The notes beneath the pieces are model-generated. The model did no database searches. It was not told where the DNA came from and saw only the letters and a program-made list of their open reading frames with translations. Made by a program: the position numbers and the translations under genes. A stretch of DNA of 25,380 nucleotides from a virus, in UHGV virus genome UHGV-0112510; one strand, 5' to 3'. Positions 5,428 through 25,380 of this stretch are shown one piece after another (the stretch's first letter is position 1; every line of letters starts with the position of its first letter).

Positions 5428-5630
5428 CGTTCTCAGTAAAAACCATTCCAGACATGCTCGTTGAAGCATACGGAAACCAGACAGAAGTAGCACGCAGACT
5501 GAAATGTAGTCGCGGCACGGTCAGAAAATACGTTGATGATAAAGACGGGAAAATGCACGCCATCGTCAACGACGTTCTCATGGTTCATCGCGGATGGAGT
5601 GAAAGAGATGCGCTATTACGAAAGAATTGA
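5424..5630 (+). CDS. ninH: NinH, small DNA-binding protein
   Basis: 68 aa, HTH-like ([19 protein letters not shown]); size and position as lambda ninH. Confidence 0.8.
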
Positions 5631-6851: not shown

Positions 6852-6926
6852 GGGTCAGTCGTATAAAGGTCATTACGGAAGGCTGTTAACCTTCTTATCG
6901 TGGTTCGAGTCCACGCTGTCCCGCCA
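6852..6926 (+). tRNA. tRNA-Asn (anticodon GUU)
   Basis: Hand-folded cloverleaf: acceptor GGGTCAG/CTGTCCC (one U-U mismatch), anticodon stem GAAGG/CCTTC with loop CTGTTAA, T-arm CGTGG-TTCGAGT-CCACG, encoded CCA. Anticodon loop and T-loop resemble E. coli tRNA-Asn. D-stem is only 3 bp. Confidence 0.55.
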
Positions 6927-6931
6927 AACAT

Positions 6932-7007
6932 GCTGGTTTAGCTCCAATGGTAGAGCGGTCGCCTTGTAAGCGAATGGGTAGCGGTTCAAGTCCGTTAACC
7001 AGCACCA
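6932..7007 (+). tRNA. tRNA-Thr (anticodon UGU)
   Basis: Acceptor GCTGGTT/AACCAGC perfect; D-arm GCTC-CAATGGTA-GAGC; anticodon loop CTTGTAA; T-arm AGCGG-TTCAAGT-CCGTT; discriminator A plus CCA. Confidence 0.7.
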
Positions 7008-9940: not shown

Positions 9941-10369
9941 ATGAATATGGCGACTGAACCAAAAGCTGGTCGCCCCTCTGATTATATGCCGGAGGTGGCT
10001 GACGATATCTGCTCGTTGCTTTCTTCTGGCGAAAGTTTGCTGAAAGTATGTAAGCGTCCTGGTATGCCGGATAAGTCCACTGTTTTCCGCTGGTTGGCAA
10101 AGCATGAGGATTTTCGCGACAAGTACGCGAAGGCAACTGAGGCACGAGCTGATTCTATTTTCGAAGAGATATTCGAAATTGCTGACACTGCGATTCCAGA
10201 TGCTGCTGAGGTGGCAAAGGCAAGACTTCGCGTTGATACCCGCAAATGGGCGCTGGCCCGAATGAATCCCCGTAAGTATGGCGACAAGGTAACTAACGAG
10301 CTTGTCGGTAAGGACGGCGGCGCAATTCAGATTGAAACATCACCGATGAGCACTCTGTTCGGAAAATGA
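9941..10369 (+). CDS. terminase small subunit (Sf6 gp1-like)
   Basis: MNMATEPKAGRPSDYMPEVADDICSLLSSGESLLKVCKRPGMPDKSTVFRWLAKHEDFRDKY... HTH DNA-binding N-domain, recalled as Sf6-type TerS; alternative start ATG at 9947; stop overlaps the TerL start. Confidence 0.85.
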   Translation: MNMATEPKAGRPSDYMPEVADDICSLLSSGESLLKVCKRPGMPDKSTVFRWLAKHEDFRDKYAKATEARADSIFEEIFEIADTAIPDAAEVAKARLRVDTRKWALARMNPRKYGDKVTNELVGKDGGAIQIETSPMSTLFGK

Positions 10370-11781
10370 CCTCGATTAATCCTATCTTTGAACCGTTCAT
10401 TGAGGCGCATCGCTACAAAGTCGCCAAAGGCGGTCGAGGTAGCGGTAAGTCATGGGCAATTGCGAGGCTGCTTGTTGAAGCGGCGCGTCGGCAGCCTGTG
10501 CGCATACTTTGCGCTCGTGAGCTGCAAAACAGTATCAGCGATTCGGTAATTCGGTTGCTTGAAGACACCATAGAGCGGGAAGGGTATTCGGCTGAGTTTG
10601 AAATTCAGCGTTCCATGATTCGTCATCTCGGAACGAATGCTGAATTCATGTTCTACGGCATCAAAAACAACCCGACGAAGATTAAATCGCTCGAAGGCAT
10701 TGATATCTGCTGGGTGGAAGAAGCGGAAGCGGTAACGAAGGAATCATGGGATATCCTGATACCAACCATCCGCAAGCCGTTTTCAGAAATATGGGTGAGC
10801 TTTAACCCTAAGAACATCCTCGACGATACCTATCAGCGATTCGTCGTAAATCCTCCTGATGATATTTGCCTGCTGACAGTGAACTACACCGACAACCCGC
10901 ACTTTCCTGAAGTTCTCCGTCTGGAGATGGAAGAGTGCAAACGCAGAAATCCGACACTATATCGTCACATCTGGCTTGGTGAGCCAGTAAGCGCAAGTGA
11001 TATGGCAATCATCAAACGTGAATGGCTTGAAGCCGCAACCGATGCGCACAAGAAACTCGGATGGAAAGCGAAAGGCGCTGTTGTCTCTGCGCATGACCCA
11101 TCAGATACAGGGCCAGATGCTAAAGGTTATGCATCGCGTCACGGTTCGGTAGTTAAGCGCATTGCCGAAGGTCTGCTGATGGACATCAATGAAGGTGCTG
11201 ACTGGGCAACTTCGCTGGCTATTAAAGACGGCGCTGACCACTATTTGTGGGATGGTGATGGTGTTGGTGCGGGGCTGCGCAGACAGACAACGGAAGCATT
11301 CTCCGGTAAGAAAATCACCGCCACGATGTTCAAGGGCAGCGAATCGCCATTCGATGAAGATGCACCGTATCAGGCCGGAGCATGGGCTGATGAAGTCGTA
11401 CAGGGCGACAACGTTCGCACTATTGGCGATGTGTTCCGCAATAAGCGAGCGCAATTCTATTACGCGCTGGCTGACAGGCTGTATCTGACATATCGGGCGG
11501 TTGTCCACGGTGAGTATGCAGACCCCGACGACATGCTGAGTTTCGACAAAGAAGCGATAGGCGAGAAGATGCTGGAGAAGCTGTTTGCAGAACTGACGCA
11601 GATTCAGCGCAAATTCAATAATAACGGGAAGCTGGAGCTTATGACTAAGGTCGAAATGAAGCAGAAGCTCGGTATTCCATCTCCTAACCTGGCTGATGCG
11701 CTGATGATGTGTATGCATTGCCCGGAGTCGGCTGCGCAACCCGACTATTCCAGTTACTCAATTCCTTGTGGTGTAGGTTGA
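10366..11781 (+). CDS. terminase large subunit (ATPase/nuclease), Sf6/P22-type headful
   Basis: 471 aa; Walker A KGGRGSGKSWA, Walker B-like ICWVEEAEAV; C-terminal nuclease region. Confidence 0.95.
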   Translation: MTSINPIFEPFIEAHRYKVAKGGRGSGKSWAIARLLVEAARRQPVRILCARELQNSISDSVIRLLEDTIEREGYSAEFEIQRSMIRHLGTNAEFMFYGIKNNPTKIKSLEGIDICWVEEAEAVTKESWDILIPTIRKPFSEIWVSFNPKNILDDTYQRFVVNPPDDICLLTVNYTDNPHFPEVLRLEMEECKRRNPTLYRHIWLGEPVSASDMAIIKREWLEAATDAHKKLGWKAKGAVVSAHDPSDTGPDAKGYASRHGSVVKRIAEGLLMDINEGADWATSLAIKDGADHYLWDGDGVGAGLRRQTTEAFSGKKITATMFKGSESPFDEDAPYQAGAWADEVVQGDNVRTIGDVFRNKRAQFYYALADRLYLTYRAVVHGEYADPDDMLSFDKEAIGEKMLEKLFAELTQIQRKFNNNGKLELMTKVEMKQKLGIPSPNLADALMMCMHCPESAAQPDYSSYSIPCGVG

Positions 11782-11782
11782 T

Positions 11783-13981
11783 ATGGCAGAAAAAAAGATG
11801 ACTGACTGGCATCGCAAGGTGCTGTGCAACTTTGATAATGCCTGGTCAGCAACGCAGGATATGCGTGAGCAGATTATTGAGGCTCAACGTTTCGTCCGGG
11901 TATCCGGCGCACAGTGGGAAGGCAGCACAAACGCTGGTTACTCATTTGATGAAGGCAGGTTTGAGCATTACCCGCGCTTTGAACTGAATAAGATTGCCCG
12001 TGAATGTGATCGCATCATTGGCGAGTATCGACAGAATCGCATCAGCGTTAAATTCAGGCCGAAGGATGACAAGGCATCGGAAGCGTTAGCCGAAAAAATG
12101 AACGGCAAATTCCGCGCTGACTATCAGGAAACATCCGGTGGCGAAGCGTGTGATAACGCATTTGATGATGCCGTAACGGGCGGATTCGGTTGTTTCCGCA
12201 TGTGTGCCGATTATGAAGATGAAATGGATCCGAGTAACGAGCAACGCCGTATAAGCCTTCTCCCTGTTTACGACCCAGCGACATGCGTCTTCTTTGATCA
12301 GGACAGCAAGCAATATGACCGCTCTGATGCTATGTGGGCTATGGAAATGTTCTCCATGACGCCTAAAGCGTTCGAGGCTGAATACCCTGATTCCATCGCG
12401 GCAAGCCTTTCTCGAGATGACACTGGCACTCAATATGACTGGTCAACGCCAGATGCCATCTATGTTGGACGCTACTACGAAGTTCGCATAGAGAAGGTGA
12501 AGCTCACGGCGTGGCGCAACCCTGTTAGCGGAGAAACGGCAATCTATGATGAAGAGCAAATCAAAGATGTTGTTGACGAGCTGACCGATGGCGCATTCGA
12601 ACTGATTGGTGAGCGGACAGTGAAGAAACGCCGAGTTTATTGCGGTCTTCTGTCTGGTGCTGAATGGCTGGAAGAGCCGAAGCGTATTCCGGGCGAACAT
12701 ATTCCTCTCATCCCGGTATATGGGCGTCGTTCATTTGTTGATAATCAGGAGCGAATAGAAGGCCACGCAGCAAAAGCGATGGATGCACAGCGTCTTGAGA
12801 ACCTGATGGTTTCCATGATTGCAGATAACGCTACTCAGGCTGGCGGTGATGGCATTCCTGTAGTTGATGTTGACATGATTCCTGGTCCTCTCGCCACTCA
12901 TTGGGCGGAGCGCAACAAAAAGCGCCCGGCGTTCCTGCCGATGGTCAGTCTGAAAAACAAAAACGGAGATATTACTGCGCAGGCTCAGGTCAGCAGTTAT
13001 ACACCTCCGACACAAATGCCTCCAGCTCTTGCCGGGCTATTGCAGTACACCGGAACGGCTATTCAGCAAATTACAGGTGCGTCGCAGCTTGAGAACATGC
13101 CGAGCAACGTCGCTACCGATACCGTTGATAGTATCTTTAACCGGATGGATACGCAGTCCTATATCTACATGGACAACATGGCTAAATCCATGCGTCGCGC
13201 TGGCGTTGTGTGGCTTTCTATGGCGCGTGAGGTCTATGGCAGTGATACGCCGATGCGTATCGTTAATGAGGACGGCAGCGATGACGTGGCGCTGATGACT
13301 GGTGAAGTTGTTGACCGTCAGACAGGGCAGGTTATCGCTCTTAACGACCTTTCGCAGGGTAACTATGAAGTGACTGTCGATGTTGGTCAGTCGTTCGCTA
13401 CTCGCCGTGATGCAACGGTTAAGTCGTTACTTTCCATGCTGGCACTTATCCCACCAGGAACGCCGAAGCACGACCTTGTATCGTCGATGATTCTCGACAA
13501 TATGGACGGCGAAGGGATGGACGACCTTAAAGAATACAACCGCAATCAGTTGCTTCTGTCTGGAGTTATCAAGCCGAGAACACCAGAAGAACAGCAGATG
13601 GTTGAGCAGGCGAAACAACAACAGGCCAGTCAGCCGGATCCGGCTATGGTTGCAGCGCAAGGTCAGCTTCTGGCTGGTCAGGCTGAATTGCAGAAAGCGC
13701 AGAACGAACAGGCAGCCATTCAGGTTAAAGCATTCCAGGCACAGACTGATGCTCAGGTTGCTGCGGCAAATGTTGTGAAAATCCTCGCATCTGCCGATAG
13801 CCAGCAGAAATCTGATATCCGCGAGGCTCTGAAACTGCTCGGACAGTTCCAGCAACAGCAAGGAGACAATGCCCGTGCTGATGCAGAGCTTGTCCTGAAG
13901 AGTCAGGCGCAGGGCCATGCGCAGAGCATGGACATCAACAGCATCCTGCAAAAATCAACTCAGCAACAACCACAGCAGTAA
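11783..13981 (+). CDS. portal protein (P22 gp1-like)
   Basis: 732 aa; blocks shared with the P22 portal from memory (KKRRVY, EHIPLIPVYG, DPAMVAAQGQLLAGQAELQKAQNEQ); Gln-rich C-terminal helical barrel region. Confidence 0.95.
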   Translation: MAEKKMTDWHRKVLCNFDNAWSATQDMREQIIEAQRFVRVSGAQWEGSTNAGYSFDEGRFEHYPRFELNKIARECDRIIGEYRQNRISVKFRPKDDKASEALAEKMNGKFRADYQETSGGEACDNAFDDAVTGGFGCFRMCADYEDEMDPSNEQRRISLLPVYDPATCVFFDQDSKQYDRSDAMWAMEMFSMTPKAFEAEYPDSIAASLSRDDTGTQYDWSTPDAIYVGRYYEVRIEKVKLTAWRNPVSGETAIYDEEQIKDVVDELTDGAFELIGERTVKKRRVYCGLLSGAEWLEEPKRIPGEHIPLIPVYGRRSFVDNQERIEGHAAKAMDAQRLENLMVSMIADNATQAGGDGIPVVDVDMIPGPLATHWAERNKKRPAFLPMVSLKNKNGDITAQAQVSSYTPPTQMPPALAGLLQYTGTAIQQITGASQLENMPSNVATDTVDSIFNRMDTQSYIYMDNMAKSMRRAGVVWLSMAREVYGSDTPMRIVNEDGSDDVALMTGEVVDRQTGQVIALNDLSQGNYEVTVDVGQSFATRRDATVKSLLSMLALIPPGTPKHDLVSSMILDNMDGEGMDDLKEYNRNQLLLSGVIKPRTPEEQQMVEQAKQQQASQPDPAMVAAQGQLLAGQAELQKAQNEQAAIQVKAFQAQTDAQVAAANVVKILASADSQQKSDIREALKLLGQFQQQQGDNARADAELVLKSQAQGHAQSMDINSILQKSTQQQPQQ

Positions 13982-14071
13982 TTAACCCATAACGTGCAAT
14001 GGCTGTCTTTATGAGGCCTGGCACCCTATTGCCTTCCGATGGGCTGAACATCGAGTAAACAGGGGTAACAA

Positions 14072-14968
14072 ATGGACCAGATGGCAGAAAACACACCAGA
14101 AGTTGAAATCGAAACCGACGCGTCAGAGCAGATTCCTGATGATGTCGAACTGTCTGAAGAAGTCGAAACGGAAGATGGCAGTGAGTACTCCGGCAATGAT
14201 GCAGAGGAAGCTACTGAAACTGATGACGACGAATCAGAACAGGAATTCTACTTTGGTGACGAAAAGCTGGATTCGCCAACCAGCGAAGATAGCGCAGAGC
14301 ATGGACTGGTAAAACACCTGCGCAAGACGATTAAAGAGAAAGATCGCGAGCTGAAAGAGCTGATGCGTCAGTCTCAGAAACCCGTCGAGCAGCAGCCGGT
14401 AATCACTCAACCACCGCGAATGCCAAAACTGGATGATGAGGACATCGGTTTCGATGAAGAAATCTATCAGCAACGCATGGCTAAGTGGGCAGAGGATAAC
14501 GGAAAGTACCAGCAACAGGAGATGGCTCGCAAGCAGAAGGAGCAGGAGCTTCAGGCTGCTTATCAAGAGCGATTATCCAAATATCAGCAACGTGTTAAGG
14601 CTCTCAAGGTTCCTGGCTATCAGGAAGCAGAACAGGCCGTACTCGAGGAAATCCCCATCGAGACACAAAACGCGATCCTGTTTGAGTCAGAGAAGCCGGA
14701 AATCGTTGTTCTGGCACTCGGTCGCAACGCTGAACTGCGCAAGCAACTGGCAGAAGCTACCAACCCCGTAGCAATTGGTCGTCTGCTGGAACGTATCGAA
14801 TCGAAGGCCAGAATCATGCCAAAAGCAAAAACCACGGCAGCCACAACCCCGAAAGTTAAGGGGAGCAACGGCGCAGTAATCAATAACCTCGACAAACTTC
14901 TCGAAAAAGCGCGCGAAACCGGTGATTACACCGAATACCGGGCGGCGAAGAACAAAGCTAAAAAATAA
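14072..14968 (+). CDS. scaffolding protein
   Basis: 298 aa, highly acidic N-terminus, coiled-coil middle, basic C-terminal helix-turn-helix-like tail (KNKAKK); sits between portal and coat as in P22 (gp8). Confidence 0.8.
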   Translation: MDQMAENTPEVEIETDASEQIPDDVELSEEVETEDGSEYSGNDAEEATETDDDESEQEFYFGDEKLDSPTSEDSAEHGLVKHLRKTIKEKDRELKELMRQSQKPVEQQPVITQPPRMPKLDDEDIGFDEEIYQQRMAKWAEDNGKYQQQEMARKQKEQELQAAYQERLSKYQQRVKALKVPGYQEAEQAVLEEIPIETQNAILFESEKPEIVVLALGRNAELRKQLAEATNPVAIGRLLERIESKARIMPKAKTTAATTPKVKGSNGAVINNLDKLLEKARETGDYTEYRAAKNKAKK

Positions 14969-14988
14969 TCCATCGGAGCTAAACACCT

Positions 14989-16248
14989 ATGTCTAACCAG
15001 TTAACCAAAGACCTCGAAATCCTCTTTGAGAACGTCATTGATAGTTTTGAGGCGTCTAATGTCGTTTCCAGCGAGTGCAGTAAGTTCCGACCGGGCGACA
15101 CTGAAATGCAGCGCGCTGGCGACGTTGTTTATCGCCCTCAGGGCTACCACCTGAAAACCGTGAGCGGACTTGATCTGACTTCGGCCACTGCAAACTCACT
15201 CGTTCAGCGTCAGGTGCCTGCTCGCTTCCGCGAGCCAGAGAACGTCATCTACGAACTGGACGCAAAAGAAATGCGCGATTCGTGGCACAAAGAGCAGGCT
15301 GGCAAGGCGGCGGGTCGCCAGTTGGCGGCGTGGGTTGATAACATGATCGTCGATGAGGTGGCCTCTCGCTCCACCAACGTGGTCACCATTAAATCGGCGT
15401 CCACCGGTAACACTCTCGGCGAAGAACTCTGGAACGCATCGGCTGAAGTTGATGCAATGATGCTGTCCATTGGTGTGCCTCAGGGTGGTCAGCGCAAGGC
15501 GTTCTACAACCCGTTCAACTACAAAGACCTGGCTAAGGAGCTTGGCTCTCGCGCATATGCGGTCGGTAAAACTCTGACAGCCTATGAGAAAGCTCAGATT
15601 CCACCTGTGGCATCCTTCGATAGTTTCCGCGTTGATTATGCTGGCGCAATGAAGGCTGGTTCAGCTACCGAAGTAACGCTCAACGGCGCAGTAGCACATA
15701 AAGTTACCGCGATGGATTCCAACGGCGCGCCTACCGATAACCGCCAGGGTGACATCACCGTATCCGTTGCTGACGTACTGGCTGTCGGCGATGCATTCAC
15801 TATCGCAGGCGTTAACAGTGTCCACATGATCAAGAAGGTGGATACAGGTAAGCCGCAGGTATTCCGCGTCCTGGCAGTAAATGGCACTACCGTTACCATC
15901 AGCCCGAAAATTCTGCCACCAGACAACAAGGATAATGCGTCTATTCCTTACCAGAACGTTACCGCCAATCCGGCGGAAAACGCGGCGATCACCATCCTCA
16001 ACAAGAAGGCTGCGGCTTCCAACATCTTCTTCGCTGAGGGTTCTGTTGAGCTGATGTATGGCAAGTTGGCATTCCCTACCGGCCAGGGTCCGCAGGTTAT
16101 GACCGCAACGACCGAGCAGGGTGCGACCATCATCATGGCTTACCAGTTCGACGCTAAATCTGGCAAAACGTGGACTCGCTTCACCACGCTGGCTGGCGCA
16201 AGCGTACTGGTCCCGGAATTCACCGGCCTGGTACTGGCTAACCAGTAA
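14989..16248 (+). CDS. major capsid (coat) protein, P22 gp5-like
   Basis: 419 aa; position after scaffold; followed by a very strong terminator, typical of major capsid genes. Confidence 0.9.
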   Translation: MSNQLTKDLEILFENVIDSFEASNVVSSECSKFRPGDTEMQRAGDVVYRPQGYHLKTVSGLDLTSATANSLVQRQVPARFREPENVIYELDAKEMRDSWHKEQAGKAAGRQLAAWVDNMIVDEVASRSTNVVTIKSASTGNTLGEELWNASAEVDAMMLSIGVPQGGQRKAFYNPFNYKDLAKELGSRAYAVGKTLTAYEKAQIPPVASFDSFRVDYAGAMKAGSATEVTLNGAVAHKVTAMDSNGAPTDNRQGDITVSVADVLAVGDAFTIAGVNSVHMIKKVDTGKPQVFRVLAVNGTTVTISPKILPPDNKDNASIPYQNVTANPAENAAITILNKKAAASNIFFAEGSVELMYGKLAFPTGQGPQVMTATTEQGATIIMAYQFDAKSGKTWTRFTTLAGASVLVPEFTGLVLANQ

Positions 16249-16252
16249 TCCA

Positions 16253-16278
16253 AGGGGCTTCGGCCCCTCTTTTTTTTT
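16253..16278 (+). terminator. strong rho-independent terminator after the coat gene
   Basis: AGGGGC-TTCG-GCCCCT (UUCG tetraloop) followed by a run of 8 T (16271-16278). Confidence 0.7.
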
Positions 16279-16288
16279 GGAGATCGAA

Positions 16289-16477
16289 ATGTCTCAAATC
16301 ATGCTTTATAAGCCGGGCTCGATGATCACCTGCGGGCCCCACTCGCTGGATTACATCATTGTTGATGACGAAGAAGTTAAATCTCACCTGAAAAAAGGCT
16401 GGGTAAAAACTCCTGAAGAAACCGCAACGAAGCAAAAAGTGGCTAAGGCGGAAGAAGATGGCGAAAACGAAGGGTGA
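16289..16477 (+). CDS. small hypothetical protein (62 aa) between coat and head-completion genes
   Basis: ATG at 16289 with GGAG at 16279-16282; MSQIMLYKPGSMITCGPHSLDYIIVDDEEVKSHLKKGWVKTPEETATKQKVAKAEEDGENEG; overlaps the next gene start. Confidence 0.45.
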   Translation: MSQIMLYKPGSMITCGPHSLDYIIVDDEEVKSHLKKGWVKTPEETATKQKVAKAEEDGENEG

Positions 16478-16919
16478 TCTCGTTCTAAAGGCTTTACGAA
16501 AAGCCGGGCTGTATTCCAATGCCACGTTGACGGATGCTGACCCTCAGGCAATTGAAGATGCCATTAATGACCTCGAAGACATGATGGCAGCATGGCGGGC
16601 GAAAGGTATCGAGCTTGGATATCAGTTTGCTGATACAGAAAACGGCATCATGCCGTTACCTGACGATGATTCAGGTATCCCCGCATGGGCAAATGATGGT
16701 GTCGCTTTGAAACTCGCTGTGCAGGTGTGCATGGATAACGTCATTCAGCCGTCAGACGCTCTCCTTACCGCTGCTGACAGTGCATATCAGACAATCTGCA
16801 TCGCTTTAACCAAAATACCACCACTTGAGCGGCGAAATGACATGCCTCGCGGTAGTGGTAACAAAAGCGCGTTTACGTGGAATCGGTTTTACATCGAGAA
16901 AGATGATCCGAGTACGTGA
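16458..16919 (+). CDS. head completion / tail accessory protein, P22 gp4-like
   Basis: 153 aa; gene order and size as P22 gp4. Confidence 0.7.
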   Translation: MAKTKGDLVLKALRKAGLYSNATLTDADPQAIEDAINDLEDMMAAWRAKGIELGYQFADTENGIMPLPDDDSGIPAWANDGVALKLAVQVCMDNVIQPSDALLTAADSAYQTICIALTKIPPLERRNDMPRGSGNKSAFTWNRFYIEKDDPST

Positions 16920-16928
16920 GGTGAATAA

Positions 16929-18347
16929 ATGCCGATTCAGCAACTTCCGCTTATGAAAGGTGTCGGCAAAGACTTCCGAAATGCCGACTATATCGACTAT
17001 CTGCCAGTGAATATGTTGGCTACACCCAAAGAAATCCTGAACAGCAGCGGATATCTTCGCTCATTCCCGGGCATTGCAAAACGTTCTGATGTGAACGGTG
17101 TATCTCGCGGTGTCGAGTACAACATGGCGCAGAATGCTGTTTATCGTGTGTGTGGTGGCAAGCTGTACAAAGGCGAAAGTGAAGTCGGTGATGTTGCCGG
17201 AAGTGGTCGCGTATCAATGGCGCATGGTCGGACATCACAGGCGGTAGGCGTTAATGGTCAACTGGTCGAGTATCGCTATGATGGCACGGTTAAAACCGTC
17301 TCAAACTGGCCTACGGACAGCGGATTCACGCAGTATGAGTTAGGTTCTGTTCGCGACATTACTCGCTTACGTGGGCGTTATGCGTGGTCAAAAGATGGTA
17401 CTGATTCATGGTTCATCACTGACCTTGAAGACGAATCACATCCTGACCGCTACAGTGCACAATATCGTGCCGAGTCTCAGCCGGACGGCATCATCGGAAT
17501 CGGAACATGGCGAGACTTCATCGTCTGCTTTGGTTCATCGACGATTGAATATTTCTCCCTGACTGGTGCAACCACCGTTGGTGCCGCTTTGTATGTCGCC
17601 CAGCCATCGTTGATGGTGCAAAAAGGAATCGCCGGAACCTACTGCAAAACGCCGTTTGCTGATTCTTATGCGTTCATCAGCAATCCTGCAACAGGTGCGC
17701 CGTCTGTGTACATCATCGGATCCGGTCAGGTGTCACCAATCGCCAGCGCGAGCATTGAGAAAATCCTCCGCTCCTACACTGCTGATGAACTGGCTGATGG
17801 CGTGATGGAATCGCTGCGGTTTGATGCGCATGAGTTGCTGATTATCCACCTTCCGCGCCATGTTCTCGTGTACGACGCATCTTCAAGCGCCAATGGTCCG
17901 CAATGGTGTGTGCTGAAAACAGGCCTGTATGACCATGTGTACCGCGCTATCGACTTCATTTACGAAGGCAATCAGATAACGTGCGGCGATAAGCTGGAAT
18001 CCGTGACCGGGAAATTGCAGTTCGATATCAGCAGCCAGTACGACAAGCAGCAGGAACACCTGCTGTTTACTCCGTTGTTCAAAGCGGATAACGCCAGAGT
18101 TTTCGACCTTGAAGTTGAATCTTCAACTGGAGTTGCGCAGTATGCTGACCGCCTTTTTCTCTCTGCAACCACTGACGGCATCAATTACGGGCGTGAGCAG
18201 ATGATTGAGCAGAATGAACCGTTCGTTTATGACAAACGTGTTTTGTGGAAGCGAGTCGGGCGCATCAGGAAAAATGTCGGCTTCAAATTGCGCGTTATCA
18301 CGAAGTCACCTGTCACTCTGTCTGGCGCTCAGATAAGGATTGAGTAA
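16929..18347 (+). CDS. head completion / tail hub protein, P22 gp10-like
   Basis: 472 aa, same length as P22 gp10 as recalled; conserved gene order. Confidence 0.8.
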
Positions 18348-19153
18348 TGGCGGATTCGAATCTCAATGTGCCGGTAATCATTCAGGCTACACAGCTCGAC
18401 ACATCAGTCCTTCCACGCAATATCTTCTCGCAGTCGTATCTGCTTTACGTTATCGCACAGGGCACTGATGTTGGTAACGTGGCTAACAAGGCCAACGAGG
18501 CCGGACAGGGCGCTTATGATGCACAGGTTAGGAACGATGAGCAGGATGTGATTCTCGCTGACCATGAGCAGCGAATCAGCCAGGCAGAATCAACTCTTCA
18601 GGAACATGAAACACGAATAGCTCAGAATGAAAGCGATATTGCGTCGCTTGATACCAGAGTTCAGTCGCTCGAATCGCAGGTTTCAGACCATGAAACGCGC
18701 ATCGATGCTCTGGAGTATGCCACTACTCGCAAGAAGTCAGAGGTTGTTTACTCTGGCGTATCTGTAACCATCCCGACAGCGCCGACCAACCTTGTTAGCC
18801 TGCTGAAAACGCTCACGCCGTCATCCGGCACGTTGGCACCATTCTTCGACACCGTTAACAACAAGATGGTTGTGTTCAACGAGAACAAAACCTTGTTCTT
18901 CAAGCTGTCGATCGTCGGGACGTGGCCCAGCGGAACCGCCAACAGGTCAATGCAGCTAACCTTTTCCGGCTCTGTTCCTGACACACTGGTAAGCAGTCGC
19001 AACTCGGCGACAACAACCGACAACATCCTGTTAGCTACGTTCTTCAGCGTGGATAAAGACGGCTTTCTTGCCACAAATGGCAGTACGTTAACCATTCAGT
19101 CGAATGGTGCGGCGTTTACTGCCACAACCATCAAGATAATCGCGGAGCAGTGA
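18347..19153 (+). CDS. tail needle protein, P22 gp26-like, with a C-terminal knob-type extension
   Basis: N-terminus [43 protein letters not shown]... matches the P22 gp26 N-terminus from memory; heptad coiled coil ([37 protein letters not shown]); distinct ~140-aa C-terminal domain. Confidence 0.85.
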
Positions 19154-19608
19154 TGATTACATTCAAACCAACGCGAAACATCGACCTGATAGAAGCAGTC
19201 GGAAATCACCCTGACATTATCGCCGGGAGCAACAACGGTGATGGATACTACTACAAACCTGAATGCCGTTACTTTGAGGTGAACGTGCACGGTCAGTTTG
19301 GCGGCATTGTTTACTATCAGGAGATTCAGCCGCTGACATTCGATTGCCACGCCATGTACCTGCCAGAGATTCGCGGCTTCAGCAAGGAAATTGGGCTGGC
19401 GTTCTGGCGATACATTCTGACTAACACCACCGTTCAGTGCGTAACATCGTTCGCTGCACGCAAATTCCGACACGGTCAGATGTACTGCGCAATGATTGGC
19501 CTTAAGCGTGTAGGAACCATCAAGAAATACTTCAAAGGCGTGGATGACGTGACTTTTTACAGCGCCACACGCGAAGAACTAATCGACTTCCTGAATCACG
19601 GGAGATAG
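19153..19608 (+). CDS. P22 gp14-like head assembly/ejection-associated protein
   Basis: 151 aa from the ATG at 19153 (ORF-track start 19150 is a GTG); position between needle and ejection proteins. Confidence 0.6.
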   Translation: MITFKPTRNIDLIEAVGNHPDIIAGSNNGDGYYYKPECRYFEVNVHGQFGGIVYYQEIQPLTFDCHAMYLPEIRGFSKEIGLAFWRYILTNTTVQCVTSFAARKFRHGQMYCAMIGLKRVGTIKKYFKGVDDVTFYSATREELIDFLNHGR

Positions 19609-19610
19609 CC

Positions 19611-20303
19611 ATGTTATATGCATTTAAGCTGGGCAGAAAACTGCGCGGCGAGGAACCTTATTGCCCTGAAAAAGGCGGGAAAGGTGGCAGTTCTGATAAA
19701 AGCGCAAAGTATGCAGCAGAAGCCCAGAAGTATGCAGCAGACCTGCAAAATCAGCAGTGGCAGACGATCATGAAAAACCTTGCTCCGTTCACGCCTCTTG
19801 CGGAGCAGTATGTTAACCAGCTTCAGAACCTTTCCAGTTTAGAAGGTCAGGGGCAGGCACTTAATCAGTATTACAACTCTCAGCAGTATAAAGACCTTGC
19901 AGGGCAGGCGCGTTACCAGAGTCTTGCTGCTGCGGAGGCGACGGGTGGACTTGGTTCGACAGCCACAAGCAATCAACTGGCTACGATCGCGCCGACACTC
20001 GGTCAGTCTTGGTTATCAAATCAGATGAGCAATTACAACAATCTGGCAAACGTTGGGCTTGGTGCGCTGCAAGGTCAGGCAAACGCCGGGCAGACGTACG
20101 CCAACAACATGAGCAGCATTGCACAGCAAAGCGCAGCTCTTGCCGCTGCTAATGCCAATAAACCATCAAGTCTTCAGACTGCAATTAGCGGTGGCACGTC
20201 TGGTGCGATTGCCGGTGCAGGTCTTGCCAGCCTTTTGGGAACATCAACGCCTTGGGGCGCTGGCATTGGTGCTGGTATCGGATTGCTTGGCTCGTTGTTT
20301 TAA
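19611..20303 (+). CDS. ejection (injection) protein, P22 gp7-like
   Basis: 230 aa, MLYAFKLGRKLRGEEPYCPEKGGKGGSSDKSAKYAAE...; Gln/Ala/Gly-rich; Gly-rich hydrophobic C-terminus. Confidence 0.8.
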   Translation: MLYAFKLGRKLRGEEPYCPEKGGKGGSSDKSAKYAAEAQKYAADLQNQQWQTIMKNLAPFTPLAEQYVNQLQNLSSLEGQGQALNQYYNSQQYKDLAGQARYQSLAAAEATGGLGSTATSNQLATIAPTLGQSWLSNQMSNYNNLANVGLGALQGQANAGQTYANNMSSIAQQSAALAAANANKPSSLQTAISGGTSGAIAGAGLASLLGTSTPWGAGIGAGIGLLGSLF

Positions 20304-20312
20304 GGGGTAATC

Positions 20313-21668
20313 ATGGCTACTTGGCAAGGAACAAACGGCGGATTGTTGGCTGGTATCGGCGGCGTCAACTCAAACGCTCCGAGCGTAAATGACATCGGCA
20401 ATACGCTTCAGCTTATCAGGCAGAACAATGATATTGAGCGTTCAGGCGCTAACAATGTTGGACTGACGGCCTTGCAAGGTCTTTCAGGTATTGCGGGTGT
20501 TTTTCAGCAGGAAAAGCAGGCTCAGCGGCAGAAAGAATTTCAGCAGGCATACGCTAATGCTTATGCGTCTGGTGATCGCGGTGCTTTGCGTCAGTTGGCT
20601 ACTCAATATCCAGACCAGATTGAATCCGTTCGTAAAGGCATGGGATTCATTGATGAAGACCAGCGTAATTCTATCGGTACATTAGCGGCTGGCGCTCGTC
20701 TTGCGGCATCGTCTCCAGAAGCAATGCAATCATGGCTGCAAAATAACGCCAAGGAACTGACTCGCGTCGGTGTTGACCCTAATAACGTTGCTCAGATGTA
20801 TCAGCAGAATCCTTCAGGATTTGGTGAGTTTGTTGATCACCTTGGAATGGCTGCTCTTGGTCCGATTGATTACTTCAATGTTCAGGACAAGATGGCTGGT
20901 CGTGAGATTGATCGCGGAAAACTTGCAGAGACAATCCGCAGCAATCAGGCTGGCGAGGTGCTAACAGCACGAGGTCAGAACATCACGATGCGCGGCCAGG
21001 ATTTATCGATGCAGAGAGCATCAATGAAAGGGTCGGTTGGGAATAATGAGCGTACAGTTCAGTTAGCAGATGGCAGAACTGTAACGGTAGGCGGGAAGCT
21101 TCACGGCGCTGGGGCTAATGCGTTCTACGAAGGTATCGACAACGAGGGGAATATGGTTCGCGTTCCTGCCAGTTCAATCGCTGCTCCTGCAACATCGTCT
21201 GCATCAGCACAAAACTATGCCATGAAGAAGGATATCGACGCGATCGCAAATGCAGACGCTTCTGCTCTCGATTTCATGACAGGAATGACAGGCGGTGCAG
21301 GTAATCCAGCAATTGGTGCTGATGTTCGCAGCCGATTAACGGGAAAAGAGCAGCGCCAGTTATATAACTCAGCACAACGTATTCAGGGCAGAATGCAGAA
21401 TCAGGGTGTGGCGGCAGCAAGGGACATGGGTGCCAGTGGTATTAACACCGTTGCAGAAGCGAAGATGTATTTTCAGGGGATGCCGCAGGTTGACTATTCA
21501 AGCCCGGAGGCTATGCAGCAGTCGATTCGTGAGATTCAGGAATACACCAACAATTACAACCAACAATATAACGTTAATGTTGGTAAATCTCAGCGGAAGC
21601 AATCTCAACCTGCACAGGTATCACAGCCAGCAGCCAGCAGTAACTTTTCTTCACTATGGGGTGATTAA
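20313..21668 (+). CDS. ejection protein, P22 gp20-like
   Basis: 451 aa; order and composition consistent with gp20. Confidence 0.75.
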
Positions 21669-23773
21669 TGGCTAAAGCATGGAAAGATGTTATCGCCTCT
21701 CCACAGTATCAGGCGTTAGCACCAGAACAAAAAGCGCAGGCTCAGGAGCAATACTTCAATGAAGTCGTTGCCCCGCAAGCCGGAGAAAGTGTAGAGCAGG
21801 CTAAGCAGGCTTTTTATGCTGCCTATCCACTACCATCAACGAATGAAATAGACCGATCCCAATCAGCAACTCAAAATATTCAACATACATCATCTGATAA
21901 TTCTCTTGCGTCAGGGTATGCAAAGTTAGCTACTCAGCAAAGAGAGGGGCTTGAGCGTTCAGCAGAACAGGGAGCCAGTCTTGGGGCTGCGATGCGCGAT
22001 GCTATAACAGGCGAAAGCCGAATGACTCCAGAGATGGAGAGACTGCAAAATGTCACCTCTGCCCCAGAATTGAACTCACTAAGCATGGATGCCCTAAAGG
22101 CTGGATGGTCTCAACTTTTCGGCTCTGACGCGTCTCAGGAAAAGATTCTTCAGGGAATGGGGGCGACATTAAGGCAGGATGAGAAGGGGAATACTATCGT
22201 TTCTCTGCCATCAGGTGATTATGCCCTGAACAAGCCGGGTTTATCACCGCAAGACCTGACTTCGTTTCTTGCTAATGCGTTGGCGTTTACACCAGTGGGC
22301 AGGGCTGGAACGGTGCTTGGTGCCATAGGAAAATCAGCAGCTACAGATTTAGCACTACAGGGAGCCACCAGCCTTGCTGGTGGAGAAGATATTGATCCGT
22401 TACAAACGGTAATTTCTGCTGGCATTGGTGGTATTGGTAAGGGGCTGGAAAATACAGCGAGTGCGGTTTCGAGGGCTGTTCGTGGTGATATGTCGCCTGA
22501 AGCAAAGGCTGCTGTCGACTTTGCATCGGAAAGAAATCTGCCGTTAATGACCAGTGACATGCTGAAAGATAAAACCTTTATGCAGAGTCAGGCTCAGACA
22601 TTAGGCGAAAGAGTTCCTTTTTTTGGAACCGGTAAGAATCGGCTGAATCAACAACAAGCACGAGAAAATTTAGTCAGAACATTTAGCGATGGTCTGGGTG
22701 GCATTTCTGATAAACAGCTTTATGAATCTGCGACTAAAGGGCAACAAAAATTCATTGAGGCAGCAGGAAAGCGATATAACCGCATAATTGACGCTATGGG
22801 GGATACCCCTGTCGATCTCTCAAACACGGTAAAAGCTATCGACAATCAGATTGCCGTGTTAAGCCGCCCGGGCAAATCTCAGGATAGAGCCGCGGTAAAA
22901 GTCTTGCAGCAATTTAAAGACGATATCACCAGCGGACCAAATGACCTGCGTCTGGCGAGGGAAAACAGAACCGATCTTCGAAAGCGATTTATGGCGTCAT
23001 CTGACACTGTTGATAAAGATACGCTCCAGAAAGCCAGCGATATTATCTACAAGGCATATACGGCGGATATGAAAAAAGCCGTAGCCAAAAATCTTGGAGC
23101 AGACGAAGCCATTAATATGGCAAGGGTTGATCGCTCATGGTCTAAATTCAATGACATGATGGGAAGAACGCGCGTTCAAAAGGCAATAGCCAGCGGCAAG
23201 GCCACGCCTGAGGATGTAACAAAACTCGTTTTTAGCCAAAGCCCATCAGAACGTTCTCAGCTTTACAGGCTTCTGGATGACAATGGTAGGCAAAACGCAC
23301 GAGCAGCCATAGTTCAGAATGCTGTAGATAAGGCGACTGATCCGTCTGGAAATATCAGTGTTGAGAAGTTTATTAATGCGTTACACCGGAACAGGAAGCA
23401 ATCAGCAACTTTCTTTAAAGGCGTACATGGAAAGGAACTGGACGGCGTTATTAAATACCTCAACGATACAAGACACGCGGCAAAAGCGAACGTTCAAAAC
23501 TTAAATGGTCAGCAGCTTTATGGATTGTTAGTTGGTGGTGGCATCATAAACGCAGCAGTATTAGCGGGGATGCTAAAAACGGCTGCGTTTGTTGTTCCTG
23601 CTGCTGGTGCCGTAGGCGGAGCAGCGAAGGCATACGAAAGCCCTGTTATACGAAATGCCTTGTTACGTCTGGCAAATACGCCAAAAGGTAGCACAGCATA
23701 TGACAGAGCGATCAGTACGGTCACACAATCGCTCACCAGAGTCGCACAGGCATCACAAAAAGAAGCTCAATAA
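21668..23773 (+). CDS. ejection protein, P22 gp16-like
   Basis: 701 aa; last of three consecutive ejection-protein genes; hydrophobic Gly/Ala-rich segment near the C-terminus (LLVGGGIINAAVLAGMLKTAAFVVPAAGAVGGAA). Confidence 0.75.
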   Translation: MAKAWKDVIASPQYQALAPEQKAQAQEQYFNEVVAPQAGESVEQAKQAFYAAYPLPSTNEIDRSQSATQNIQHTSSDNSLASGYAKLATQQREGLERSAEQGASLGAAMRDAITGESRMTPEMERLQNVTSAPELNSLSMDALKAGWSQLFGSDASQEKILQGMGATLRQDEKGNTIVSLPSGDYALNKPGLSPQDLTSFLANALAFTPVGRAGTVLGAIGKSAATDLALQGATSLAGGEDIDPLQTVISAGIGGIGKGLENTASAVSRAVRGDMSPEAKAAVDFASERNLPLMTSDMLKDKTFMQSQAQTLGERVPFFGTGKNRLNQQQARENLVRTFSDGLGGISDKQLYESATKGQQKFIEAAGKRYNRIIDAMGDTPVDLSNTVKAIDNQIAVLSRPGKSQDRAAVKVLQQFKDDITSGPNDLRLARENRTDLRKRFMASSDTVDKDTLQKASDIIYKAYTADMKKAVAKNLGADEAINMARVDRSWSKFNDMMGRTRVQKAIASGKATPEDVTKLVFSQSPSERSQLYRLLDDNGRQNARAAIVQNAVDKATDPSGNISVEKFINALHRNRKQSATFFKGVHGKELDGVIKYLNDTRHAAKANVQNLNGQQLYGLLVGGGIINAAVLAGMLKTAAFVVPAAGAVGGAAKAYESPVIRNALLRLANTPKGSTAYDRAISTVTQSLTRVAQASQKEAQ

Positions 23774-23777
23774 CTGG

Positions 23778-23800
23778 TTAGCCATGGATGGCTAATTTTT
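23778..23800 (+). terminator. terminator hairpin at the convergence of gp16-like and the minus-strand membrane gene
   Basis: TTAGCC-ATGGAT-GGCTAA followed by TTTTT (23796-23800). Confidence 0.5.
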
Positions 23801-24211
23801 GTTCTTTGCTCTCATCCATAGGTAAAGAAGGGAAAGAACAAGACAAAAAACAGAGAATAGATAACCTACCTCATATGGTGCGCCAAAAAAATTAGCTATT
23901 GATACGGGCAAAAAAGCTGACGCGATCAAAATTGAAAGGCAAAAAATAAGCCCAGTAATATAGTTTATTAAATTCTTAAATGAGAAACGTTTTGCTTGAT
24001 TTACGGTCTTAACGAACGATCGCTTAACGACGGATAAAAGCAAATAGATGGCGACAGTTGCTAATGCCCCTTTCCACCAGTCTGGATATAGTTTTGCGAC
24101 AATCAGACCAAGGAAAACCATGATGACAGCCTGAGCATTCACACCAACCCTCCCTTTAGCTTTGTTTAGAATGGCAATCATCATATATCCAAGACATGGC
24201 ATTTGGTACAT
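23792..24211 (-). CDS. small integral membrane protein (4 predicted TM helices), moron; possible superinfection-exclusion type function
   Basis: 139-aa minus-strand ORF, convergent with the structural operon; locally AT-rich; four hydrophobic segments; basic C-terminus; no recognised homolog. Confidence 0.7.
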   Translation of the reverse strand: MYQMPCLGYMMIAILNKAKGRVGVNAQAVIMVFLGLIVAKLYPDWWKGALATVAIYLLLSVVKRSFVKTVNQAKRFSFKNLINYITGLIFCLSILIASAFLPVSIANFFGAPYEVGYLFSVFCLVLSLLYLWMRAKNKN

Positions 24212-24335
24212 AGCTTGGGTCGGGATTTCAAATCCGATCCCCGTTGATGGGGCCGTTACAGTACGCGCATATCCGCTTTATGTGAAACAGGAAGATTTTT
24301 CTGATATCACTGCCACAGCAAAACACCAATTTCGA

Positions 24336-24351
24336 GACAAGTACGCGCGCG
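24336..24351. repeat. 16-bp direct repeat copy 1 (GACAAGTACGCGCGCG)
   Basis: Exact match to 24623-24638; a partial third copy (CAGTACGCGCA) lies near 24260-24272. Confidence 0.6.
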
Positions 24352-24361
24352 AGGGGTATCA

Positions 24362-24381
24362 GTTGCAAAAAATTTTGCAAC
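24362..24381. promoter_or_regulatory. perfect 20-bp palindrome GTTGCAAAAAATTTTGCAAC (candidate dimeric protein binding site)
   Basis: 9-bp arms GTTGCAAAA/TTTTGCAAC with a 2-bp centre; 11 bp downstream of direct repeat copy 1. Confidence 0.3.
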
Positions 24382-24622
24382 TACGTCCGACCAGTATGCA
24401 CACGATGGCGGGGGGATACCATAAAACTGTTCTCTACATGAGACAGAGTGGTGGTGATGTGTTGATTATCGGCGTATATGCGCACAGGACGCGCTATGAC
24501 GATGTTTTATGCGGGTACACCAATCACATGTATCTGGTGTGATAAATCGCGTTACATGACCTCTCATGTTGTACTGGTGGTTATCACGACGTTCTGAATC
24601 TGGCCTTTGCCTGGTATTTTGC

Positions 24623-24638
24623 GACAAGTACGCGCGCG
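24623..24638. repeat. 16-bp direct repeat copy 2 (GACAAGTACGCGCGCG)
   Basis: Exact copy of 24336-24351, 287 bp away; flanking context also similar (TTCGA / TTGC before GACAAG). Confidence 0.6.
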
Positions 24639-24984
24639 TAGCATCGAAATAATCGGATGGCGTATGCTGCTGGTAATATGAAGACCGATAGCATTAACCG
24701 TAAGGAGAAAGACTTCTCGATAACGGCAAGGGGGCTGAATTGCGAGGCGAGATTAAGCAACTGTCTTGAACGTAAAAATCATGGAGCAACATGATGGTAC
24801 GATTCATTCCATTCTTCGTTCTTTCTGAGCATTGCGTTCAGGCTTAGTCAAAATTAGTGTTGCGAGCGGACCTATTAGTAATTGTTGGTGCGATGCGTCT
24901 GTTATGGATTGTTATGGTTGTGGCAGGCCTGATTAATATCCAGTATGACCACCAGCTATGAGAGGCCACCTCAGTGGTTCGCAG

Positions 24985-25040
24985 TTGCAGGTTTGCACTC
25001 AGGTTCGCAGGGTTTTGGCTACTTTCACGTGCGAACCTGC
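24985..25040. other. long imperfect hairpin / inverted repeat in apparently non-coding DNA
   Basis: TGCAGGTTTGCAC (24985-24997) pairs with GTGCGAACCTGCA (25028-25040), 13 bp with one G-U; 30-nt loop containing a further GGTTCGCAG repeat; no adjacent T-tract on either strand. Confidence 0.35.
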
Positions 25041-25175
25041 AGAATTGCAAAGGACAACTAAGTCCTCTGGCCAACTCCCGGTTTATGAGCGACACAGTCC
25101 GCCTGGCGCATCGTTTTCGTCGAGTGCGCCCATCAGCTTGTCCATGGACTATCCACCACTCGATATTAAAGCTAA

Positions 25176-25361
25176 TCATTGGTTGCCAGCCCGCGAATCA
25201 AGTTTGTTCTGGATCCAAGCTTCAACCTCCTCAAGCGACCATCTAGCTGATCTACCAATTTTAACTGGCTGTGGAAACGTGCCCGTCTTAACCCATGAGT
25301 AGATTGCCGTTTTCTTGAAGCCCGTTCTGAGCATGACTTCGCTTAATTTGATAAGGCGCAT
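25176..25361 (-). CDS. alpA: AlpA-family transcriptional regulator / excisionase-like DNA-binding protein
   Basis: 61 aa, MRLIKLSEVMLRTGFKKTAIYSWVKTGTFPQPVKIGRSARWSLEEVEAWIQ...; canonical AlpA/Vis-type winged HTH signature; RBS AGAGGAG upstream on the minus strand (plus coords ~25366-25372). Confidence 0.85.
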   Translation of the reverse strand: MRLIKLSEVMLRTGFKKTAIYSWVKTGTFPQPVKIGRSARWSLEEVEAWIQNKLDSRAGNQ

Positions 25362-25380
25362 AGAGGCTCCTCTGCTTTAG

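Follow-up and report, generated by a model that had tools for sequence, protein, structure and literature searches.

An AlpA gene at the tailspike position of a P22-like phage contig is alpA_1 of an EcCIMP1-type satellite island

Results

An intact AlpA-family gene ends the contig

The window, that is, the whole 25,380-nt stretch of DNA analysed here, is an entire SPAdes contig from a metagenome (ena:ERZ1303574, NODE_1365_length_25380_cov_3.36; our locus L015) with a coverage of 3.4. It contains the following features:

1-21614, plus strand: P22-like (Lederbergvirus-type) phage part, from Pfam matches, gene calls and identity to the contigs L013, L014 and L016
21615-21768, plus strand: 154-bp stretch identical in phage and island, from mismatch maps; comprises the gp20 3' end (54 nt) and the gp16 5' end (101 nt)
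21668-23773, plus strand: island-type gp16 ejection protein, 701 aa (PF26808, PHROG 770); 100% identical to the island L001 from 21615 on
23776-23797, plus strand: terminator-like hairpin with T-run, beginning 3 nt past the gp16 stop; found once, no more than chance would give in this region
23792-24211, minus strand: hydrophobic membrane ORF of 139 aa (129 aa in RefSeq) at the P22 sieA position; 'hypothetical protein' in the island copies
24171-24542, plus strand: 123-aa ORF overlapping the 5' end of the divergent membrane ORF; protein-like, with no Pfam or PHROG match and no RefSeq annotation
24329-24351 and 24616-24638, no strand assigned: 23-nt direct repeat in two copies, 91% identical, within a segment conserved among island variants (about 24217-24700)
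24754-24850, no strand assigned: relic of an IS110-family 3' end, about 95 nt, matched at about 95% in more than 2000 complete E. coli genomes
25176-25361, minus strand: alpA_1, an intact 61-aa ORF (MRLIKLSEVMLRTGFKKTAIYSWVKTGTFPQPVKIGRSARWSLEEVEAWIQNKLDSRAGNQ) for an AlpA/excisionase-type winged-helix DNA-binding protein
25362-25380, minus strand: alpA_1 5' leader with a GAGGAG ribosome-binding site, up to the contig end; the promoter and the divergent perC-like gene fall outside

The alpA_1 product is a small single-domain protein within the size class of its family (about 50-75 aa), and its reading frame is intact. In a profile search it matched Pfam PF05930 (Phage_AlpA) with E=1.9e-13 and a score of 50.5 bits (cutoff 21); residues 1-50 aligned to positions 1-51 of the 51-position model, which is the whole model. 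Further matches were to HTH_17 in Pfam and to PHROG 66, 'excisionase and transcriptional regulator' (E=1.3e-12). The annotated start differs among RefSeq records: the gene is 159 bp long (52 aa) in CFSAN061761 and in MP1 but 186 bp long (61 aa) in SBF22. We preferred the 61-aa start because it gives the full-length Pfam alignment and has a GAGGAG Shine-Dalgarno sequence 5 nt before its ATG. A 111-aa ORF that overlaps the alpA_1 stop was taken as non-coding; it has an odd, Arg-rich composition, no RefSeq annotation and no Pfam or PHROG match.

By sequence, AlpA_1 is related to the proven recombination directionality factor TorI (PDB 1Z4H), to which phmmer aligned it with E=1.1e-5 and about 40% identity over 57 aa (residues 3-59). 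It is 44% identical to the canonical AlpA of the same island type, and sequence comparison found no similarity to P22 Xis. There is no integrase gene adjacent to alpA_1, either in the window or in the island loci described below.

The stretch between gp16 and alpA_1

The initial annotation had placed an AlpA-family gene on the minus strand after gp16, where a P22-like genome would be expected to continue with the tailspike. The ORF, its family, its strand and the missing tailspike all hold, but the gene does not follow gp16 directly: the membrane ORF intervenes, as do about 960 bp (24212-25175) without an intact conserved gene. In reference P22 the order after gene 16 is sieA, orf59a, mnt, arc, ant and gene 9 (tailspike). 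The window resembles it in the upstream order 14-7-20-16 and in the small hydrophobic ORF on the minus strand that comes next after gene 16, but neither the ORF list nor Pfam yielded mnt, arc, ant or a tailspike at 23774-25380, the membrane ORF is unlike SieA and AlpA_1 is unlike P22 Xis. The membrane ORF gave no Pfam or PHROG match and, against P22 SieA, a BLASTP E-value of 0.95, that is, no detectable similarity.

A scan for promoters and terminators found nothing above chance, and the hairpin after gp16 was the one site it picked out. The 123-aa ORF is probably a decaying gene: islands that have the 701-aa gp16 carry it whole, whereas 1-nt indels break it in the MP1-type and other variants. 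The palindrome at 24362-24381, which had been suggested as a binding site for AlpA, lies inside this ORF, about 800 bp downstream of alpA_1, and we found nothing that links the two. The IS110 relic matches the last ~70 nt of the transposase gene together with the downstream end of the element, and it appears to be a solo IS end in the island spacer.

The phage part

From O/DnaB replication genes, two tRNA genes, lysis genes, a Sf6-type small terminase, the large terminase, portal and scaffold, the phage part of the window continues through coat, gp4, gp10, needle, gp14 (DUF2824), gp7 and gp20; the closest phages are Kapi1 and CUS-3. The two tRNA genes (Asn-GTT and Thr-TGT, 6852-7007) are neighbours between the nin-type region and the holin gene. 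They were the only hits of Rfam at the gathering threshold in the whole window, with no RNA family in 23700-25380.

Three contigs with an identical gp20, L013, L014 and L016, share 99.92% identity with the window over 10313-21837. After gp20, all three carry a 665-aa gp16 and a gene for a Mnt/Arc-type repressor. L013 and L014 continue into the tailspike region, with an acyltransferase in both and a 605-aa head-binding tailspike in L014. In L013, which comes from an E. coli isolate, there follows a 46-bp 3' fragment of thrW (tRNA-Thr), the prophage attR, and then int, AlpA, antA, DUF4222 and ash. The mnt/tailspike region that is missing from the window is present in P22, L013 and L014.

The contig changes source within 154 bp at the gp20/gp16 border

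In base-by-base maps, the window matched the phage type (L013 type) without a mismatch over 14666-21768 and the island type, represented by the island of CFSAN061761 (L001), without one over 21615-25380; between the two types themselves, complete identity is confined to 21615-21768. Positions 21606-25380 are 99.9-100% identical to the right arm of a thrW-adjacent island in many E. coli. The contig therefore changes source, from a P22-like phage to the island, within 21615-21768, at the border of gp20 and gp16. The boundary does not lie after gp16, as had been proposed; gp16, the membrane ORF and the spacer already belong to the island. We assign the 701-aa gp16 to the island and not to the phage, whose gp16 has 665 aa, because the sequence is of the island type from 21615 on and the two proteins share 33% aa identity.

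The genes on either side of the 154-bp stretch are strongly diverged: the ejection proteins of phage and island share 24% aa identity for gp14, 54% for gp7, 46% for gp20 and 33% for gp16. Identity over 154 bp amid such flanks points to a recent exchange between satellite and phage at this border. A search for further likeness between phage and island DNA, such as a copied pac site, found only 65 bp at 85% identity inside gp20. In other island variants (L023), the junction of gp20' and gp16' (primes denote the island genes) is about 93% identical to both sides of the window junction. Judged from these alignments, the gp20/gp16 border is clearly a natural mosaic joint.

The gene is alpA_1 of the satellite EcCIMP1

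EcCIMP1 is a phage-inducible chromosomal island (PICI) of E. coli MP1 (Pick, Stadel & Raivio, ISME J 2025, PMC11773190). It sits between proA/thrW and yagU, has a mapped size of 19,963 bp and a core att of TCCTATTATC, and is mobilised by the P22-like phage Kapi1 (PMC11773190). The island has two AlpA genes. One, alpA, lies beside int; it is induced by the helper, activates itself and is required for excision, circularisation and transduction. The other, alpA_1, is found at the other end of the island in the reverse orientation, and none of the three processes needs it (PMC11773190).

The ORF in the window is identical to alpA_1 (EcCIMP1_023) in 61 of 61 aa. A single RefSeq accession, WP_049066248.1 (UniProt D7XGK5), covers alpA_1 of MP1 and CFSAN061761, and the CFSAN061761 locus is 100% identical to the island part of the window. 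When the coordinates were compared with the publication, alpA_1 of MP1 fell inside the experimentally mapped boundaries of EcCIMP1 (3,565,708-3,585,670; PMC11773190). The AlpA gene of the window is thus an already known and experimentally studied gene in its usual genetic neighbourhood. Over 24217-25380, the DNA of the window is 98.4% identical to EcCIMP1 of MP1. In MP1 and all related loci, alpA_1 closes the island on the side of the ejection genes, is encoded on the other strand from them and diverges from a perC-like gene. There are two differences. MP1 has a gp16' of 906 aa with an SLT domain and a 232-aa ORF, whereas the window has the 701-aa gp16' and the 129/139-aa ORF, as CFSAN061761 does; and the left part of the island, from int to gp20', is replaced in the window by the P22-like phage.

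PerC stood on one side in all ten non-redundant contexts of the identical protein, and P22-type ejection genes with a TOPRIM/DUF927 primase stood on the other side in nine. The exception (L005) has no ejection or primase genes, and chromosomal genes abut alpA_1 instead. At an identity of at least 99% at the nucleotide level, alpA_1 was present in 153 of 5,426 complete E. coli genomes, and 76 of these 153 had the whole stretch 23700-25380. No record in a collection of 50,697 phage records matched 23700-25380, and none encoded a protein more than 60% identical in aa to AlpA_1. Because alpA_1 is absent from the phage records, it is not a component of ordinary P22-like phages. The suspicion that the gene belongs to a second integrative element of the satellite type was therefore well founded, both in the identity with the EcCIMP1 gene and in the lack of a close copy among these records.

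Architecture and variants of the island

In CFSAN061761 (L001), the island begins at thrW with int, alpA, a hypothetical gene, antA, DUF4222, ash and several small genes. It continues with the TOPRIM/DUF927 primase, a 53-aa ORF, DUF2824, gp7', gp20' (473 aa) and gp16' (701 aa). Its right end holds the 129-aa ORF and AlpA, both on the minus strand, then the perC-like gene, a hypothetical gene, pRiA4b-ORF3 and another hypothetical gene, after which come the chromosomal yagP remnant and paoD. The MP1 locus has the same architecture. Of this gene order, the window shows alpA_1 linked with the gp16 of the island type and with the membrane ORF, and it lacks the part from int to gp20': int, the canonical alpA and the primase are present in the related island loci and absent from the window. 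The initial annotation had suggested a search for an integrase, a primase or satellite-type genes beyond the window. In the related loci, a primase and the perC-like gene accompany alpA_1, and the integrase lies about 14 kb away, with the canonical alpA.

The EcCIMP1-type satellite has its own full P22-type ejection set of DUF2824/gp14, gp7, gp20 and gp16 (15416-20074 in L001; 21668-23773 in the window). Its ejection-protein homologues were handled as packaging candidates in the published study (PMC11773190). These proteins, or the membrane ORF at the sieA position, could be candidates for the superinfection-immunity phenotype of the island. In another island (L011, 13694-15793), the gene calls merge gp7' and gp20' into one fusion protein of 699 aa with P22_gp7 and Inj_translocase domains.

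The contents of the alpA_1 slot vary among islands. In L012 (10316-11763) it holds an Abi-family protein and a hypothetical gene; in L023 two hypothetical genes occupy it (12020-12764), and a Panacea-domain pair lies beyond them (14122-15014). Lying between the conserved spacer and the perC-like gene, the slot looks like a site for accessory or defence cargo.

A search for thrW-derived att repeats in the island locus found no recurring 14-mer. Near both island ends there is a 22-nt motif, ATGGGGGTACTTATGGGGGTAT, whose general form is ATGGGGGTACTT(A/T)TGGGGGTAT, with two ATGGGGGTA half-sites. It lies just inside both ends in every locus checked (5558-5579 and 24235-24256 in L001; also L017, L021, L012, L023 and L013). 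Because the motif falls inside the published boundaries of EcCIMP1, its two copies are probably arm-type binding sites of the integrase rather than the core.

Discussion

Origin of the join between phage and island

Only through the change of source in the contig does alpA_1 come to stand at the place of a tailspike. The parental arrangement is a tandem array, in which a P22-like thrW prophage with its normal gp16-mnt-tailspike-acyltransferase-attR is followed by an EcCIMP1-type island. A skip from the phage copy to the island copy of the 154-bp patch would drop about 18 kb from such an array and give exactly the window. We favour, with moderate confidence, the reading that this skip occurred in the assembly, through the collapse of a tandem phage-island array. 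We favour it because the coverage is 3.4x and because the exact repeat is longer than typical SPAdes k-mers and about as long as one short read, a comparison that uses typical values and not the settings of this sample. Two general considerations count against an assembly origin: SPAdes usually breaks at unresolved repeats instead of joining across them, and 154 bp of identity suffices for a RecA-mediated deletion in a tandem array.

Arrays of the required kind exist. A P22-like prophage stands in tandem with an island in L013 and in the complete genome of SBF22, where the island ends gp16'-hypothetical gene-alpA_1-PerC. The phage of SBF22 is without the 154-bp patch, which makes this a related array only, and we found no complete E. 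coli genome with exactly the phage of the window in tandem with the island.

It is possible, though we think it rather unlikely, that the contig is real and that recombination between the two 154-bp copies deleted about 18 kb at thrW, comprising the phage sequence from gp16 to attR and the island sequence from int to gp20'. The product would be a hybrid prophage that lacks a tailspike and is fused to the right arm of the island, and alpA_1 would still be an island gene. Such an event is consistent with several observations: an exact 154-bp identity flanked by proteins that are 24-54% identical implies an earlier exchange between phage and island at this place, tandem arrays occur (L013, SBF22), the junctions of island variants match both sides at about 93%, as at a natural mosaic joint, and the assembler did produce a contiguous path. 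However, the hybrid junction was absent from the 5,426 complete E. coli genomes (no full-length match above 92.9%), as well as from JGI metagenome contigs and from IMG/VR, the search pattern having been validated on the window itself. The other contigs with the exact gp20 have the normal phage gp16, with L013 and L014 running into the tailspike region, and the coverage and repeat length named above weigh against a true deletion as well. The adjacency of phage gp20 to island gp16 and alpA_1 may thus be absent from any cell.

The initial annotation had also considered a moron or a module swap. In such a case, a functional P22-like phage would carry gp16'-hypothetical gene-alpA_1 in place of sieA-immI, with its tailspike beyond the contig end. 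Although the contig stops 19 nt upstream of alpA_1, leaving the sequence beyond unseen, and although a 701-aa-type gp16 followed by a small minus-strand ORF does occur in a true P22-like prophage (L022), we consider this very improbable: all contexts examined have the island's perC-like gene on the far side of alpA_1, the phage records gave neither a match to 23700-25380 nor a close AlpA_1 protein, and in L022 the likeness to the window stops at about 24164, where TA, Clp, arc, ant and tailspike genes follow and alpA_1 is missing.

A proposed role for alpA_1 outside its own island

Membership of the Phage_AlpA family, 44% identity to the canonical alpA of the island type and the general expectation for AlpA genes would fit a canonical AlpA master regulator, controlling int/xis and lytic genes, of a further P4-like or PICI element beyond the window, yet this has very little probability: the canonical alpA adjoins int in the island loci, at a distance of about 14 kb from alpA_1, which is encoded on the other strand and has no integrase beside it, the nearest integrase fragment in the MP1 locus is part of the next island and co-oriented with the int of the first, and deletion of alpA_1 leaves island excision, circularisation and transduction intact where deletion of alpA abolishes them (PMC11773190). 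For EcCIMP1 these deletions already refute the master-regulator reading. The control of integrase or excision genes that the initial annotation named as usual for AlpA proteins is exercised in the island by the separate alpA next to int, and alpA_1 is dispensable (PMC11773190). Compared with the canonical AlpA proteins of PICIs and P4-like elements (EcCIMP1_003, EcCICFT073 alpA, CP4-57 AlpA), alpA_1 shares the family PF05930 but differs in position and strand and in being dispensable for induction of the island (PMC11773190).

The published data connect alpA_1 with the helper phage instead. The protein resembles Kapi1 Xis, which is identical to TorI (PDB 1Z4H), and deletion of alpA_1 lowers the Kapi1 titre only in a delta-xis background, that is, alpA_1 partially substitutes for Kapi1 Xis; the authors proposed a cross-acting excisionase (PMC11773190). 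Because excision of its own island is unaffected and Kapi1 Xis is partially replaced (PMC11773190), we suggest that alpA_1 acts as a cross-acting recombination directionality factor, one that would bind and bend DNA at the attachment sites of the helper prophage and so bias the integrase towards excision. The DNA-bending mechanism is the most likely one by analogy with the family. Like TorI/Kapi1 Xis, a KplE1-type directionality factor, alpA_1 encodes a small winged-helix protein of the excisionase family; unlike it, alpA_1 is not beside an integrase or att site, and its own element does not require it. The excisionase role is partly supported, by one study and by a partial, synthetic phenotype, for the argW phage Kapi1 and not for the thrW phage of the window.

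What the contig says about satellites and their helpers

The contig is a caution for the use of low-coverage metagenome assemblies: where a satellite beside its helper phage has diverged versions of that phage's genes, the two can end up joined in one contig. Were it a genuine in vivo recombinant after all, it would be direct evidence that helper and satellite exchange ejection modules at a fixed mosaic joint, and that tandem thrW arrays decay to phage-satellite hybrids which retain alpA_1. The biological interest is otherwise modest and lies in a satellite family that has a full P22-type ejection set of its own, with a 154-bp patch identical to that of a phage.
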